Source of the DNA: a virus
Taxonomy: Duplodnaviria; Heunggongvirae; Uroviricota; Caudoviricetes
IMG/VR virus record: IMGVR_UViG_2585427776_000003
DNA length: 8,206 bases
Reading direction: 5' to 3' (one strand)
Under the pieces are notes generated by a model. It ran no database searches and was not told the DNA's origin. It saw only the letters and a list, made by a program, of their open reading frames with translations. The stretch's first letter is position 1; the number at the start of each line of letters is the position of its first letter. Both the position numbers and the translations under genes were made by a program. This document shows, piece by piece, positions 1 to 5,191 of the stretch.

Positions 1-759
1 GCGCAGCGCGATGACTGGCTGAAGAAAGAGATACAGCGCGTATACGATGAAAATCACAAGGTATACGGTGTGCGTAAAGTCTGGCGTCAGTTGTTACGGG
101 AAGGTATCAGAGTGGCCAGATGCACTGTGGCACGTCTCATGGCGGTTATGGGACTTGCCGGTGTTCTCCGGGGTAAAAAGGTCCGTACGACCATCAGCCG
201 GAAAGCCGTTGTCGCAGGCGACCGCGTAAACCGTCAGTTCGTGGCAGAACGACCTGACCAGCTGTGGGTGGCTGATTTTACTTACGTCAGCACATGGCGG
301 GGCTTCGTCTATGTGGCGTTCATCATTGATGTGTTTGCCGGATACATCGTGGGGTGGCGGGTCTCATCGTCCATGGAAACGACATTCGTGCTGGATGCAC
401 TGGAGCAGGCGTTATGGGCCCGTCGACCGTCCGGCACGGTCCATCACAGTGATAAAGGTTCTCAGTATGTATCGCTGGCCTACACACAGCGGCTTAAGGA
501 AGCCGGATTACTGGCATCAACAGGAAGTACAGGCGACTCGTATGACAACGCGATGGCGGAGAGCATCAATGGTCTTTACAAAGCGGAGGTAATACACCGT
601 AAGAGCTGGAAAAACCGTGCAGAAGTGGAACTGGCCACACTCACGTGGGTGGACTGGTATAACAATCGACGATTGCTGGAAAGGCTGGGCCATACTCCTC
701 CGGCAGAAGCAGAAAAAGCTTATTATGCTTCCATCGGAAACGATGATCTGGCAGCCTGA
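1..759 (+). CDS. IS3-family transposase OrfB (DDE/rve integrase domain), 5'-partial, IS629-like
   Basis: Frame 1 is open from the window edge (AQRDDWLKKEIQRVYDENHKVYG...) to TGA at 757-759. DDE signature seen: WVADFTYV, HHSDKGSQY and YDNAMAESINGLYKAE with the conserved K/R downstream of E. The 70..759 ORF in the track is this gene with a spurious internal GTG start. Confidence 0.93.
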   Translation, partial: AQRDDWLKKEIQRVYDENHKVYGVRKVWRQLLREGIRVARCTVARLMAVMGLAGVLRGKKVRTTISRKAVVAGDRVNRQFVAERPDQLWVADFTYVSTWRGFVYVAFIIDVFAGYIVGWRVSSSMETTFVLDALEQALWARRPSGTVHHSDKGSQYVSLAYTQRLKEAGLLASTGSTGDSYDNAMAESINGLYKAEVIHRKSWKNRAEVELATLTWVDWYNNRRLLERLGHTPPAEAEKAYYASIGNDDLAA

Positions 760-801
760 GTTCACAGATAAAACACTCTCCAGGAAACCCGGGGCGGTTC
801 A
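1..801 (+). mobile_element. IS3-family insertion sequence, right-hand portion (IS629/IS1203-like); left end lies upstream of the window
   Basis: The orfB transposase frame is open from nt 1 to the stop at 757-759. The following 42 bp end in AACCCGGGGCGGTTCA at 801 (reverse complement TGAACCGCCCCGGG, which I recall as the IS629-type terminal motif). NinB-like coding sequence resumes in frame directly after 801. The left inverted repeat is outside the window, so the repeat pair cannot be confirmed here. Confidence 0.7.
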
Positions 802-1202
802 GTCAGCAGCTCCAGCCTTATCTGGAGGACGGCAAGTGCTTCCGCATGGTACTGAAGCCATGGCGCGATAAGCGCAGCCTGTCTCAAAATAGCTTAAGCC
901 ACATGTGGTACACCGAAATCAGCGAATACCTCATCAGCCGGGGTAAGACTTTCGCTACGCCAGAGTGGGTGAAGGATGCTCTGAAACACACTTATCTCGG
1001 TTATGAAACCAAAGAACTGGTTGATGTCGTAACCGGTGATATCACCACTATCCAGTCGTTACGCCATACCTCCGATCTTGATACCGGAGAGATGTATGTC
1101 TTCCTGTGTAAGGTTGAAGCCTGGGCGATGAATATTGGTTGCCACCTGACTATTCCGCAGCGCTGCGAGTTCCAGCTGCTGCGCGACAAGCAGGAGGCGT
1201 AA
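802..1202 (+). pseudogene. ybcN: NinB-family recombination protein (YbcN-like), 5' end removed by the IS insertion; residual ORF from ATG 846
   Basis: Frame 3 is open from 747 to TAA 1200-1202 but has no ATG/GTG/TTG before ATG 846. Translated QQLQPYLEDGKCFRMVLKPWRDKRSLSQN aligns by eye with lambda NinB ...VQQILPDPTKPIVVTIQERNRSLDQN, which lies about 20-40 residues into NinB. The native N-terminus should therefore lie upstream of 802, where the sequence is IS-derived. Confidence 0.7.
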
Positions 1203-1372
1203 TGGCTACACCGCTTATTCGTGTCATGAACGGACACATCTACAAAGTACCAAATCGTCGTAAGCGTAAACCTGAGCTGAAGCCATCCGAAATACCAACT
1301 CTGCTCGGATATACCGCCAGCCTGGTTGATAAAAAATGGTTGCGACTGGCAGCAAGGAGGAATCATGGCTGA
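1202..1372 (+). CDS. ninE: NinE-family protein (56 aa)
   Basis: ATG at 1202 overlaps the ybcN stop (TAATG) and is preceded by CAGGAGG at 1191-1197. Product MATPLIRVMNGHIYKVPNRRKRKPELK... is basic, like lambda NinE. The track ORF 1139..1372 is the same frame with an upstream alternative start. Confidence 0.85.
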   Translation: MATPLIRVMNGHIYKVPNRRKRKPELKPSEIPTLLGYTASLVDKKWLRLAARRNHG

Positions 1373-1655
1373 TTTGAGAAAAGCAGCGCGTGGTCGGGAA
1401 TGCCAGGTAAGAATCCCTGGCGTATGTAATGGCAATTCTGAAACGTCTGTACTGGCACATATCCGGCTGGCTGGATTGTGCGGTACCGGTATCAAACCGC
1501 CAGACCTGATTGCCACCATTGCATGTTCTGCCTGCCACGACGAAATCGACCGCCGCACACATTTTGTCGATGCTGCATATGCAAAAGAATGCGCGCTGGA
1601 AGGTATGGCGAGAACACAGGTTATCTGGCTGAAAGAGGGGGTTATTAAGGCGTGA
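1365..1655 (+). CDS. ybcO: YbcO-like protein (DUF1364, Cys/His-rich putative nuclease), 96 aa
   Basis: ATG at 1365 is preceded by AGGAGG at 1355-1360 and overlaps the ninE 3' end by 8 nt. Product [23 protein letters not shown]...CSACHDEID carries Cys/His clusters. The track ORF 1326..1655 is the same frame. Confidence 0.85.
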
Positions 1656-2014
1656 ATACCTACAGCATCACATTACCCTGGCCTCCGAGCAATAATCGCT
1701 ATTACCGCCATAATCGCGGGCGCACGCACATCAGCGCAGAAGGGCAGGCATACCGCGATAACGTCACCCGAATCATTAAAAACGCAATGCTGGATATCGG
1801 CCTGGCTATGCCAGTGAAAATCCGTATTGAGTGCCACATGCCGGATCGCCGTCGCCGTGACCTGGATAATCTGCAAAAAGCCGCTTTTGACGCACTCACC
1901 AAAGCAGGTTTCTGGCTGGATGATGCTCAGGTCGTTGATTACCGCGTTGTGAAGATGCCTGTTACCAAAGGTGGGAGGCTGGAACTGACCATCACCGAAA
2001 TGGGGAATGAATGA
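1652..2014 (+). CDS. rusA: RusA Holliday-junction resolvase (120 aa)
   Basis: GTG start at 1652 overlaps the ybcO stop (GTGA). Product [24 protein letters not shown]...[28 protein letters not shown] matches the RusA family, including the acidic catalytic region. Confidence 0.9.
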
Positions 2015-2151
2015 TGTTTGAGTTTTATATGGCAGAACTTCTTCGCCACCGCTGGGGGCATCTGCGCTTATATCGTTTCCCCGGTTCTGTTTTGACCGAT
2101 TACCGAATACTGAAGAATTACGCCAAAACCCTGACAGGAGCAGGAGTATGA
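2011..2151 (+). CDS. ylcG: small protein YlcG-like (46 aa)
   Basis: ATG at 2011 overlaps the rusA stop (ATGA). Translation is [46 protein letters not shown]. It is below the 60-aa cut-off of the ORF track but sits at the conserved position between rusA and Q. Confidence 0.6.
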
Positions 2152-2236
2152 AGTCAGAGATAACAATCAACTAATACTGTTTTGTTGATTTTTGCTTGTA
2201 ATTGGCGTTCTGGTCTGATTTTTGTGGAGTAAGTTG

Positions 2237-2620
2237 ATGCGTGATATTCAGATGGTTCTTGAGCGTTGGGGAGCGTGGGCGGCTAATAATCATGAAGATG
2301 TGACCTGGTCGTCCATTGCCGCCGGTTTTAAGGGATTAATTACTTCAAAAGTAAAATCTCGCCCGCAATGTTGTGACGATGACGCGATGATTATTTGCGG
2401 GTGCATGGCCCGTCTGAAAAAGAACAACAGCGATTTGCACGATTTATTAGTAGATTATTATGTAGTCGGTATGACATTCATGTCACTGGCAGGTAAGCAT
2501 TGCTGCTCTGATGGTTATATCGGGAAAAGGTTACAGAAGGCTGAGGGCATAATTGAAGGGATGTTAATGGCATTAGATATCCGGTTAGAGATGGATATCG
2601 TTGTTAATAACTCTAATTAA
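2237..2620 (+). CDS. quuD: late-gene antiterminator Q-like protein (127 aa)
   Basis: ATG at 2237 with GGAG at 2226-2229 (7-nt spacing). Product [22 protein letters not shown]... has a Cys-rich segment ([16 protein letters not shown]...HCCSDG) and sits at the Q position immediately upstream of the late region. The track ORF starts at an upstream TTG (2222). Confidence 0.85.
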
Positions 2621-2653
2621 TATGCCAATTGTTTACTAAAAATTATTAAAAAT

Positions 2654-2671
2654 GGGGCGTTGCAACGCCCC
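2654..2671. repeat. perfect 18-bp palindrome GGGGCGTTGCAACGCCCC; followed on the minus strand by a U-rich tract (candidate leftward intrinsic terminator or protein-binding site)
   Basis: Read directly: the sequence equals its own reverse complement. The minus-strand RNA would be hairpin + AUUUUUAAUAAUUUUU; the plus-strand RNA has no U-tract after it. Confidence 0.6.
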
Positions 2672-2759
2672 CAAAAATAAAGGGTAATATATAACAGAAG
2701 GTTTATATAGTTAGAAGCAAGGTTGTGCTCCTAAAGGAAGTGGCTTGAGGGAGCCACTT

Positions 2760-2798
2760 ATATGTTGGGGAGGCAAAGCCTCCCGCAACATATCTTTT
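2760..2798 (+). terminator. candidate rho-independent terminator (tR'-like) downstream of Q
   Basis: 15-bp stem ATATGTTGGGGAGGC / GCCTCCC-g-CAACATAT with AAA loop and one bulge, followed by CTTTT. A second 8-bp hairpin (AAGTGGCT...AGCCACTT, 2738-2759) lies just upstream. Located about 140-180 bp after the quuD stop and just past the nmpC stop on the other strand. Confidence 0.55.
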
Positions 2799-2808
2799 AG
2801 TAATCAAA

Positions 2809-3891
2809 TTAGAACTGGTAAACCATACCTACAGCAACGATATCATCGGTAGCAACGCCAGATGCTTTCGTGAAATCGCTCTTATCAATCAGGTTGATTT
2901 TGTAATCAACAAAAGTGGACATATTTTTGTTGAAGTAATAGGTTGCACCTACATCAATATATTCAACCAGGTCCTGATCACCCCACGCACCCAAGTCTTT
3001 TCCTTTAGATTGCAGGTAAGCAACGGACGGACGCAGACCGAAGTCGAACTGATATTGTGCAACTACTTCGAAGTTTTGTGCTTTGTTGGCAATATGGTTA
3101 TTACCAAAAACAGTCATGTTCTGGGTTTCAGAATAGGTGGTAGCCAGATAGATGTTGTTCGCATCATATTTCAGACCAGCTGCCCATACTTCAGCATTTT
3201 GACCAGATGCATTCAGGCTGTTGTTACCGTAGATAACCTGATTATTAGTGCGGTCAGATTTAGCATAGGTTGCACCTACACCGAATCCTTCATACTCATA
3301 AGTAGTGGAGAAACCGAAACCATCACCATTAGCTTCAGTTACGTCAGTGCGGTCATTTTTACCCTGATACTGAGCAGCAAAGTTCAGACCATCAACCAGA
3401 CCAAAGAAGTCGTTGTTACGATAAGTTGCAACACCAGTGGTGCGACCAGTCATGAACACATCTGTTTGGGTCCAGGTATCGCCACCGAATTCTGGCAGAA
3501 CGTCAGTCCACGCACCGATGTCATATGCTACACCGTAGTTACGGCCGTAATCGATTGAGCCGTAGTCCCCGAATTTCAGGCCTGCAAATGCAAGACGGGT
3601 TTTGTCTTTGGAGGAGCCTTGAGATTCAGCGCGGTTGCCTTTGAATTCATATTCCCACTGACCGAAACCAGTCAGTTGATCGTTGATTTGGGTTTCACCT
3701 TTGAAGCCAAGACGGGCATAAGTAGTATCACCATCATCTGCATCATTAGAGGAGAAGTAGTGCTTGGCATTAACTTTCCCATATAGATCCAGCTTGTTAC
3801 TGTCTTTATTATAAATTTCAGCTGCCTGAGCAGACATCGCCATCAGTACTGATGCAGCTACAGCAGAAATTGCCACTGTTAATTTTTTCAT
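2809..3891 (-). CDS. nmpC: OmpC/OmpF/PhoE-family general porin (NmpC/OmpD-like), apparently intact
   Basis: Signal peptide [23 protein letters not shown], then mature N-terminus [17 protein letters not shown]. Aromatic/Gly-rich beta-barrel pattern and C-terminus ...GMVYQF with the terminal Phe typical of OMP barrels. Start taken at ATG 3891 (complement); the track ORF to 3951 adds 20 unlikely residues. Confidence 0.93.
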
Positions 3892-4478
3892 CGTGAGCCC
3901 TTTTTTTGAACTATTATTAAAAAATGATGTCACTGCGCGATAAATATTCATCTAATCAATGTGATTATTTCAAGATGTAAGTTTTAGTTTCTCATTTAAT
4001 TTGTGAAGTAGATCTCTATTTTTATCTGAACTTTTTCTATCGAAACCTATTTGTGGCTCTTATTTGAACAAAAGTAAACCTATTAGCTAATTTATATTAA
4101 TAGTTGTTATTTATGGAGGCTCTATAATTCGGCAGTTTAATTTAAATCAACTAAAAATAACGCCTGAAATTATTTATTGGTTATTTGTTGAGGTTTTCTT
4201 ATGTATTTGTGGTGGTGTTTTGAACACTCGGTAGCATTCTCATAAATATCATTCAGTGGTTTACGTACGTAAAAAATTGGTTATGCTGTTAAGAGTGGTT
4301 ACTTCGTCACACAGCTTAAACCCGCCGTCGAGCTGGTTTTTCCATTTTCTGAGTCTCGATATTAGCTGATAACTCAATACCTGAGTTATTCACTGACTCC
4401 GAGTCTGTTACGTTTCTGCTTTTTTGCGATACGTTGTATTCCCTCAATTTACACCCGCTTTGTCTGCGAGGTGGGGTT
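3892..4478. promoter_or_regulatory. AT-rich intergenic region (~590 bp) upstream of nmpC on the minus strand and upstream of the lysis cassette on the plus strand; promoter(s) not resolved
   Basis: Visibly AT-rich with many A/T runs (3900-4260 especially) and no convincing ORF. The minus strand contains GGTTTACTTTTGTTCAAATAAG (plus-strand complement around 4059-4080), which resembles OmpR-box half-sites of porin promoters. Confidence 0.4.
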
Positions 4479-4694
4479 ATGAAATCCATGGATAAGTTAA
4501 CAACGGGTGTCGCCTATGGCACCTCAGCAGGTAGTGCCGGTTACTGGTTTTTACAGCTGCTCGATAAAGTCACGCCCTCACAGTGGGCAGCAATAGGTGT
4601 GCTGGGTAGCCTGGTATTTGGCCTGCTGACGTACCTGACAAACCTTTATTTCAAGATTAAAGAAGATAAGCGCAAGGCTGCGAGAGGTGAATAA
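4479..4694 (+). CDS. essD: class II holin of the phage-21 S21 pinholin type, dual-start (antiholin from Met1, holin from Met4)
   Basis: ATG AAA TCC ATG GAT gives MKSMDK. Two hydrophobic segments ([18 protein letters not shown] and [18 protein letters not shown]) and a basic C-tail [11 protein letters not shown]. The track ORF from 4434 adds an upstream in-frame ATG. Confidence 0.9.
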
Positions 4695-5191
4695 TGCCTC
4701 CATCATTACGAAAAGCCGTTGCTGCTGCTATTGGTGGCGGAGCAATTGCTATAGCATCAGTGTTAATCACTGGCCCAAGTGGTAACGATGGTCTGGAAGG
4801 TGTCAGCTACATACCATACAAAGATATTGTTGGTGTATGGACTGTATGTCACGGGCATACAGGAAAAGACATCATGCTCGGTAAAACGTATACCAAAGCA
4901 GAATGCAAAGCCCTCCTGAATAAAGACCTTGCCACGGTCGCCAGACAAATTAACCCGTACATAAAAGTTGATATACCGGAAACAACGCGCGGCGCTCTTT
5001 ACTCGTTCGTTTACAACGTGGGCGCTGGCAATTTCAGAACATCGACGCTTCTTCGCAAAATAAACCAGGGCGATATCAAAGGCGCATGTGATCAGCTACG
5101 TCGCTGGACATATGCTGGCGGTAAGCAATGGAAAGGTCTCATGACTCGTCGTGAGATTGAGCGTGAAATCTGTTTGTGGGGTCAGCAATGA
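4694..5191 (+). CDS. rrrD: SAR endolysin (T4-lysozyme-fold muramidase, phage 21 R21 / P1 Lyz type)
   Basis: ATG at 4694 overlaps the essD stop (TAATG). N-terminal Gly/Ala-rich weakly hydrophobic SAR segment [20 protein letters not shown], followed by the catalytic triad positions E35, D44, T50 (GLEG...KDIVGVWTV). Confidence 0.93.

Follow-up and report, generated by a model that had tools for sequence, protein, structure and literature searches.

The structured 3' end of nmpC

Which transcript does a dense cluster of hairpins serve when it lies between a phage antiterminator gene and a porin gene that face each other? The question is raised by the spacer at positions 2621-2808 of the viral record IMGVR_UViG_2585427776_000003, a stretch of 8,206 nucleotides (nt) hereafter called the window, in which the spacer sits between quuD, the gene of a Q antiterminator, and the porin gene nmpC, which is intact here. 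A sequence-only reading of this DNA had rightly described the two genes as convergent around the cluster, with quuD on the plus strand and nmpC on the minus strand, and had looked to rightward late transcription under Q for an explanation of the hairpins. We propose instead that the cluster is very probably the 3' untranslated region (UTR) of nmpC on the minus strand, i.e., the locus of the known small RNA (sRNA) IpeX, together with its terminator. As a matter of annotation this is ordinary, the IpeX locus being already known; what the analysis adds is one testable new idea on mechanism.

The window represents a DLP12-type lambdoid prophage of Escherichia coli and shows 100% identity to many E. 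coli DLP12-type prophages. Its 189-nt spacer is 96.8% identical to the quuD-nmpC spacer of DLP12 in strain K-12, from which it differs by one 1-nt insertion or deletion and five substitutions, two of which render the terminator loop self-complementary. IpeX has been described as a 167-nt RNA of DLP12 (PMC12197685), which is produced within the porin transcript and represses OmpC and OmpF (PMC12197685, PMC5069750, PMC3333887). In the window, ~167 nt separate the nmpC stop codon (2809-2811) from the far end of the T-run (~2642), thus the whole 3' UTR accommodates the reported length of IpeX. We infer the ends of the transcript from this geometry, and its processing likewise.

The terminator is built on the perfect 18-base-pair (bp) palindrome GGGGCGTTGCAACGCCCC at 2654-2671, for which a T-run on the minus strand only (ATTTTTAATA) had been noted and is confirmed here. 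The palindrome folds into a stem of 7 bp that closes a loop of 4 nt (-12.5 kcal/mol) and, read on the minus strand, the stem (6 GC pairs), the loop and the tail AUUUUUAAUA have the properties of an intrinsic terminator. A consensus terminator scan of 2400-4700 returned two terminator-like sites, of which the palindrome, on the minus strand, is the only one in the spacer. When tails were scored on both strands using a TransTermHP-like tail score, the palindrome gave -3.50 on the minus strand and -1.53 on the plus strand. A role of the palindrome as a bidirectional single-hairpin terminator was rejected on account of its A-rich plus-strand tail. The T-run ends ~20 nt from the quuD stop codon.

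Between the porin gene and this terminator the minus strand can form stem-loops A to D. Hairpin B, an 8-bp stem (AAGTGGCT/AGCCACTT), and hairpin A, a long stem followed on the plus strand by CTTTT (2794-2798), had been recognized from the letters and were recovered in our folds, whereas hairpins C and D had been omitted. The sequence-only reading had also proposed RNA folding of both strands as a check, and this revealed structure far beyond chance: the spacer has a fold z-score of -9.5 when read on the minus strand, compared with -5.8 for the plus strand, and none of 200 dinucleotide shuffles was as stable on either strand. Hairpin D is disrupted in several variants. The RepRanger table gives a repetitive extragenic palindromic (REP) label; by eye, no canonical REP sequence was found in the hairpins.

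The suggestion of overlapping terminators, one per direction, stands for the minus-strand palindrome and is plausible for hairpin A on the plus strand. The plus-strand tail of hairpin A (CUUUUAGU) scores -3.18 here and -3.46 in K-12, compared with -1.5 to -1.7 for terminator tails read on the wrong strand; the base of its stem is A/U-rich, and its T-run is just 3-5 long and differs among copies (CTTTT, CTTTTT and CTTTG). Hairpin A with CUUUU is a candidate terminator that may stop rightward transcripts leaving quuD, and it would probably thereby lessen antisense transcription into nmpC. In K-12, an extra strong terminator put into the quuD-nmpC spacer had no measurable effect, which the authors credit to the existing intrinsic terminators (PMC11677980).

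Table 1. Features of the window in the order of their coordinates
Feature	Coordinates	Strand	Description and basis
quuD, Q-type antiterminator of the Q21 family, 127 amino acids	2237..2620	+	Pfam PF06530, E 3.5e-53; RefSeq annotation
Rho-independent terminator of nmpC/IpeX	2640..2671	-	stem-loop 2654-2671 and T-run 2640-2653; terminator scan
nmpC 3' UTR / IpeX locus	2642..2808	-	~167 nt from nmpC stop to end of terminator T-run; ends deduced from geometry
Predicted seed, IpeX nt 105-137	2672..2704	-	AAACCUUCUGUUAUAUAUUACCCUUUAUUUUUG; complementary to ompC and ompF translation-initiation regions
Hairpin D	2688..2709	-	weak, 7 A-U pairs, loop ACCUUCUG; -1.3 kcal/mol
Hairpin C	2711..2734	-	9 bp, 6-nt loop
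Hairpin B	2738..2759	-	8 bp, 6-nt loop CCCUCA; 6 of 8 pairs invariant, two apical pairs vary
Hairpin A	2760..2793	-	15 bp, one bulged C/U, 3-nt loop; -22.2 kcal/mol
nmpC (lc-type) porin, intact	2809..3891	-	Pfam Porin_1, E 3.7e-153; RefSeq annotation
Probable pR'	4260..4302	+	-35 TTTACG 4260-4265; -10 TATGCT 4282-4287; predicted start ~4292-4294; homology
Candidate tR'	4319..4348	+	promoter-proximal hairpin and T-run; aligned with 'possible rho-independent terminator' of Shiga toxin phages
essD, phage-21-type holin, first late (lysis) gene	4479..4694	+	Pfam PF04971, E 2e-35; annotation

The pattern of variation also points to a structured RNA. From 86 loci we collected 31 distinct versions of the spacer, 17 of which were clean and went into a minus-strand alignment. 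This alignment has 45 variable columns out of 190, just 8 of which fall among the 92 paired columns (Fisher p = 2e-6). The stem of the terminator is invariant except for one G-U pair in one variant, while its loop takes five forms (UGCA, CUCA, UUCA, UGAC and UUCC), with a sixth, UUCU, in Escherichia albertii. Because the loop varies in this way over an invariant 7-bp stem, the perfection of the 18-bp palindrome is incidental and, judged from the alignment, the conserved entity is the RNA stem and not a protein-binding palindrome. Hairpin A retains 14 of its 15 pairs in all 17 variants, its bulge and first loop base being the parts that vary, and the loop of hairpin C is variable as well. Two pairs of hairpin C switch between A-U/U-A and G-U/U-G, which keeps the pairing on the minus strand and leaves C·A mismatches on the plus strand; outside hairpin D, one-sided changes keep pairing on the minus strand only at four stem sites and favour the plus strand at one. 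The E. albertii copy carries a compensatory change from C-G to U-A in the apical pair of hairpin A. In E. coli JB2, only the first 64 nt of the spacer (2001-2064 of locus L096) are left before an ISKpn26 element (IS5 family), which sits just beyond the terminator and replaces the remaining tail and most of the porin.

Several results speak against the assignment to a conserved, minus-strand IpeX RNA. The strand-specific wobble signal is modest, since with hairpin D counted it falls to 4 sites versus 3; the sole compensatory change comes from the single E. albertii sequence; and double compensatory changes are absent among the 17 E. coli variants, for which divergence is too low (copies at least 90% identical). 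RefSeq NC_000913.3 has no ipeX feature at 574340-574528, though micC and micF are annotated in it, a scan of the whole window against Rfam gave no match at E<=1, and the supplement of the K-12 Term-seq study has no entry for ipeX, quuD or nmpC. Altogether, the supplements of the RepRanger, Term-seq and chromatin papers contain neither ipeX coordinates nor 3' ends. On the strength of the identity with the K-12 locus and of the terminator geometry, we suggest that the spacer should carry the label nmpC 3' UTR/ipeX with its terminator, which RefSeq and Rfam lack.

Inheritance of the tail and position of the late promoter

If the hairpins belonged to a late cassette dependent on Q, they would be expected to travel with Q. 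Two E. coli strains have the porin and its tail and have lost the Q region by deletion. In E. albertii, an nmpC-like porin (88% identity) is followed by the IpeX tail beside non-phage genes and without Q, and homology with the porin module stops directly after the T-run of the terminator. Conversely, phage ev087 encodes a Q protein 85% identical to QuuD and has no such tail; its homology with the window breaks off inside the 3' end of Q, and its cargo after Q is a different reverse-oriented gene, a lipocalin. A porin search that sampled each species by a single genome located the tail behind the nmpC genes of E. coli and E. albertii alone; the chromosomal porins of Citrobacter, Enterobacter and Salmonella, 76-79% identical, lack it. 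Comparison of these loci shows that the structured tail is inherited with the porin and not with Q; the co-inheritance expected of a Q-dependent late cassette is not seen.

The counterpart of a late promoter, pR', was found on the other side of the porin gene. A search with the nmpC-essD spacer matched 4259-4341 to a stretch in ~300 Shiga toxin (Stx) phages, which, in the phages with an annotated Q, lies at the end of that gene and just beyond it, and in phage 06-3462 this stretch is annotated as pR' followed by a possible rho-independent terminator. Homologues also occur in Sakai Sp5, SfII and WGPS2. For Sakai, the start of the PR' transcript has been mapped by differential RNA sequencing and its length of 258 nt determined by Term-seq (PMC7547250); counting 258 nt back from the T-run of the Sakai terminator puts the start 2-7 nt after the -10 hexamer that aligns with 4282-4287 of the window. 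The early transcribed motif TAAGAGTGGTTAC at 4290-4302 is an invariant block, and the predicted start (~4293) lies within it. Of the 80 loci whose Q is identical, 76 contain a single copy of the motif, at least 1668 nt past the Q stop codon and never in the Q-porin spacer, and the remaining 4 end before its position; the Q-based search of viral contigs that supplied these loci gave only 100%-identical Q genes, and it was used for counts and not for diversity. SfII and Stx2a_WGPS2, whose Q proteins are only 45-47% identical, share the order of Q, two reverse-oriented cargo genes, the same promoter element and late genes. These comparisons suggest that the Q-dependent late promoter and a promoter-proximal terminator probably lie at ~4260-4348, upstream of the holin gene, and not in the spacer. 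The DLP12-type late promoter would then belong directly upstream of essD, separated from Q by a 1.6-kb cassette of reverse-oriented cargo. This layout matters for predicting which cargo is expressed under Q; the toxin genes of Stx phages occupy the equivalent position past pR'.

The stem of the candidate tR' terminator is weaker here (-3.6 kcal/mol) than in K-12 (-10.6 kcal/mol), owing to T4334. This is a G-to-T change in the 3' arm that gives GCTGG in place of GCGGG, and as a result more transcription might read through into the lysis genes without Q. The site is polymorphic among the fetched loci (~55 GCGGG, 24 GCTGG, 4 GTGGG and 1 GCAGG). In the Stx phages, a first hairpin with U7, ~30-55 nt past the PR' start (Sakai Sp5, 860-890 of locus L008), resembles a strong terminator, and the published 258-nt PR' transcript ends instead at a second terminator (1075-1103 of L008). 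In the DLP12-type window the 160-nt insert is missing, and no second terminator precedes essD (4319-4478). In ev087 (loci L004 and L091; L004 3379-3510), with its Q 85% identical to QuuD, the TAAGAGTGGTTAC block is absent, and directly after Q there is a promoter-like site with a terminator homologous to the Stx tR', followed by the reverse-oriented lipocalin gene. Close relatives of Q thus appear to use differing late promoter sequences.

The gene order rusA, ylcG, quuD (+), nmpC (-) and essD/rrrD/rzpD (+, from 4479) matches that of K-12 DLP12, in which nmpC is interrupted by IS5 after codon 346, 58 nt from its 3' end. The open frame of nmpC in the window reaches an ATG at 3951 (380 amino acids), and the RefSeq form starts at 3891 (360 amino acids). 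QuuD is 78% identical to Q of the Stx2c phage 06-3462 (77-78% for the Q proteins of the Stx phages with the annotated pR') and distantly matches the Q21 structures that have been solved, 6jnx/6p18 (E 8e-7). The Q-porin-lysis module is also present in the temperate phages PhiR34_1, ev099 and mEp332, and a 434 recombinant phage carries one acquired from K-12.

Predicted pairing with ompC and ompF, and competing explanations

We then consider how the tail might act on host porins. Within IpeX, the predicted seed covers the loop and the 3' arm of hairpin D and the single-stranded linker before the terminator. On the ompC leader, its predicted target spans -32 to -7 and comprises two blocks: 15 pairs would form over AUAUAACAGAGGGUU, where the Shine-Dalgarno sequence lies, and another 9 over AAAUAAAGG. 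RNAduplex was run on the 33-nt seed window with all controls scored identically, and cofolding was used to add intramolecular structure; full-length RNAduplex runs of IpeX against the leaders gave unrealistic whole-length duplexes and were discarded. The calculated energy of the seed is -26.4 kcal/mol with ompC, -18.8 kcal/mol with ompF, -9.6 kcal/mol with ompA and -12.5 kcal/mol with the start region of nmpC itself. For comparison, the validated pairs MicC-ompC and MicF-ompF gave -22.5 and -27.1 kcal/mol, 65 real start regions gave a mean of -11.1 kcal/mol and a lowest value of -20.9 kcal/mol, and the lowest value among 3996 random windows was -21.7 kcal/mol. With cofolding, ompC and ompF again came first, with free-energy differences (ddG) of -17.2 kcal/mol for ompC, -13.8 kcal/mol for ompF, -8.9 kcal/mol for ompA and -5.0 kcal/mol for nmpC. 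The central 24 columns of the seed are invariant in 17 of 17 variants, whereas other loops vary. The E. albertii copy (2504-2690 of locus L114) differs in the seed by a C-to-U change, after which a G-U pair with ompC would be retained.

Based on these calculations, IpeX could be a prophage-borne analogue of MicC that acts by antisense occlusion of ~24 nt of the ompC leader and of the ompF Shine-Dalgarno region, a proposal to which we give an even chance. In the proposed sequence of events, a transcript would start at the nmpC promoter, run through the porin gene and stem-loops A to D, and stop at the GC-rich hairpin and its U-run. The invariant seed in the ~167-nt tail, which is reported to lower OmpC and OmpF, would pair with the Shine-Dalgarno regions of both mRNAs, on ompC at the site of MicC, and would find no such site at the nmpC start, with the result that the phage porin takes the place of the host porins. 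If true, this would offer a straightforward account of how lysogenic conversion replaces porins, and IpeX would no longer stand apart as an odd case among porin-regulating sRNAs. The complementarity has apparently been overlooked so far.

There are points that count against such pairing. The predicted ompC duplex consists of two paired blocks split by a 5x1 internal loop, and part of the proposed seed is engaged in hairpin D. The 2006 abstract on IpeX reportedly states that there is no base-pairing with ompC or ompF. A review from 2013 contrasts IpeX with MicF and MicC and denies it any base-pairing with ompC or ompF (PMC3617542), and IpeX is said to act on ompC independently of Hfq (PMC8313858).

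Three other explanations of the cluster deserve to be weighed against the IpeX assignment. According to one, the spacer is the late cassette of QuuD on the plus strand, with pR', a Q-utilisation site and tR', and late transcription would run antisense through nmpC to the lysis genes. It draws on the canonical Q cassette, which has pR' directly after Q (bioRxiv 10.1101/651190), on ev087, which seems to have a promoter-like site and a tR' homologue there ahead of a minus-strand cargo gene, and on the acceptable plus-strand tail of hairpin A. The -10-like hexamers that the sequence-only reading had listed, at 2685-2693 and 2704-2709, are indeed present; they are accounted for as the opposite strand of hairpin D and of the invariant IpeX seed, which is A/U-rich. 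A promoter scan of the spacer found no promoter-like site, though the scan is insensitive and also misses the mapped-pR' homologue at 4260-4287. The late promoter and Q-utilisation site had been expected between the Q stop codon and the rightward hairpin, and that hairpin had been taken for tR'; neither expectation is supported, as the spacer has no significant local alignment with the post-Q regions of Stx phages or ev087, i.e., with late-promoter regions of related Q proteins, and the pR' homologue at 4259-4341 is single-copy wherever the locus reaches it. By homology, the late promoter thus falls downstream of nmpC, an outcome that the reading had itself named as speaking against its model. 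In K-12, the regulated promoter fragment of the lysis cassette that was studied lies directly upstream of essD, with control by a Q-like factor reported (PMC7918800). Since the spacer moreover accompanies the porin where Q has been lost and is missing beside a close Q homologue, this explanation is largely refuted in silico, and we consider it highly improbable. A second possibility, which we regard as unlikely, is that the cluster mainly stops transcription from both sides and stabilizes mRNA 3' ends, with no trans-acting RNA role in this strain. Protection from exonucleases is a common role of stem-loops at the 3' ends of mRNAs, each direction has its own terminator-like element, and the added terminator in K-12 changed nothing measurable, as described above. 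Such a function leaves unexplained the three extra hairpins, the invariance of a weakly structured 24-nt stretch while other loops vary, and the match of this stretch to the ompC and ompF start regions far above background; furthermore, the plus-strand T-run varies in length among copies, and published genetics place the porin repression in this segment.

The remaining explanation accepts IpeX and its published activity and denies only the pairing: the RNA would act by, e.g., titration of a protein or an indirect envelope-stress route, and the complementarity would be fortuitous. Highly structured 3' UTR RNAs can be protein ligands, and both the verdict of the 2013 review and the Hfq independence favour this explanation, which we hold to be a serious possibility, somewhat short of an even chance. 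On the other side, the ompC duplex is stronger than all 3996 random windows, all 65 start regions and the MicC-ompC pair, the ranking ompC > ompF > ompA fits with OmpC and OmpF as the repressed porins named in reviews and with OmpA, which is reportedly unaffected according to the 2006 abstract, and no other weakly structured part of the RNA is as well conserved as the pairing stretch. The longest exact DNA matches between the seed and its targets are 9 and 10 nt, which a default BLAST search with a word size of 11 would miss, and this may explain the earlier negative statement.

Comparison with known systems

The closest counterpart of the cluster is IpeX of DLP12 itself, along with the lc 3' region of phage PA-2, being the same untranslated stretch from the nmpC stop to the terminator on the same strand and with near-identical sequence. 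Compared with the K-12 locus, nmpC is intact here and split by IS5 there, and the pairing proposed above departs from the published view.

Among the porin-regulating sRNAs, MicC offers the most direct parallel, as the predicted ompC target of IpeX overlaps the MicC site, and GUUAUAU...CCUUUAUU in IpeX matches blocks of the MicC 5' end GUUAUAUGCCUUUAUU. The predicted site on ompF likewise overlaps that of MicF over the Shine-Dalgarno sequence. A conserved accessible seed with complementarity to target start regions, as in MicC and MicF, is found for IpeX in silico. Unlike these core-genome, free-standing genes, IpeX is prophage-borne and derived from a 3' UTR, its predicted seed is internal, just before the terminator, and not at the 5' end, and it is reported to be Hfq-independent for ompC, its pairing being a prediction only.

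The model of the sequence-only reading corresponds to the short pR'-to-tR' transcripts known as lambda 6S RNA and StxS. In contrast to these, the cluster has no promoter homology, functions on the other strand and is inherited with the porin; their true counterpart in the window would start at ~4293.

Finally, the promoter, porin, structured tail and terminator may be viewed together as one self-contained lysogenic-conversion cassette, or 'moron', placed between Q and the late promoter. Like other phage morons, the nmpC cassette has its own promoter and terminator, lies in the opposite orientation between Q and the late promoter, and has sharp homology boundaries, at the 3' end of Q in ev087 and at the terminator in E. 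albertii. What distinguishes it from them is that it additionally bears a regulatory RNA in its 3' UTR.

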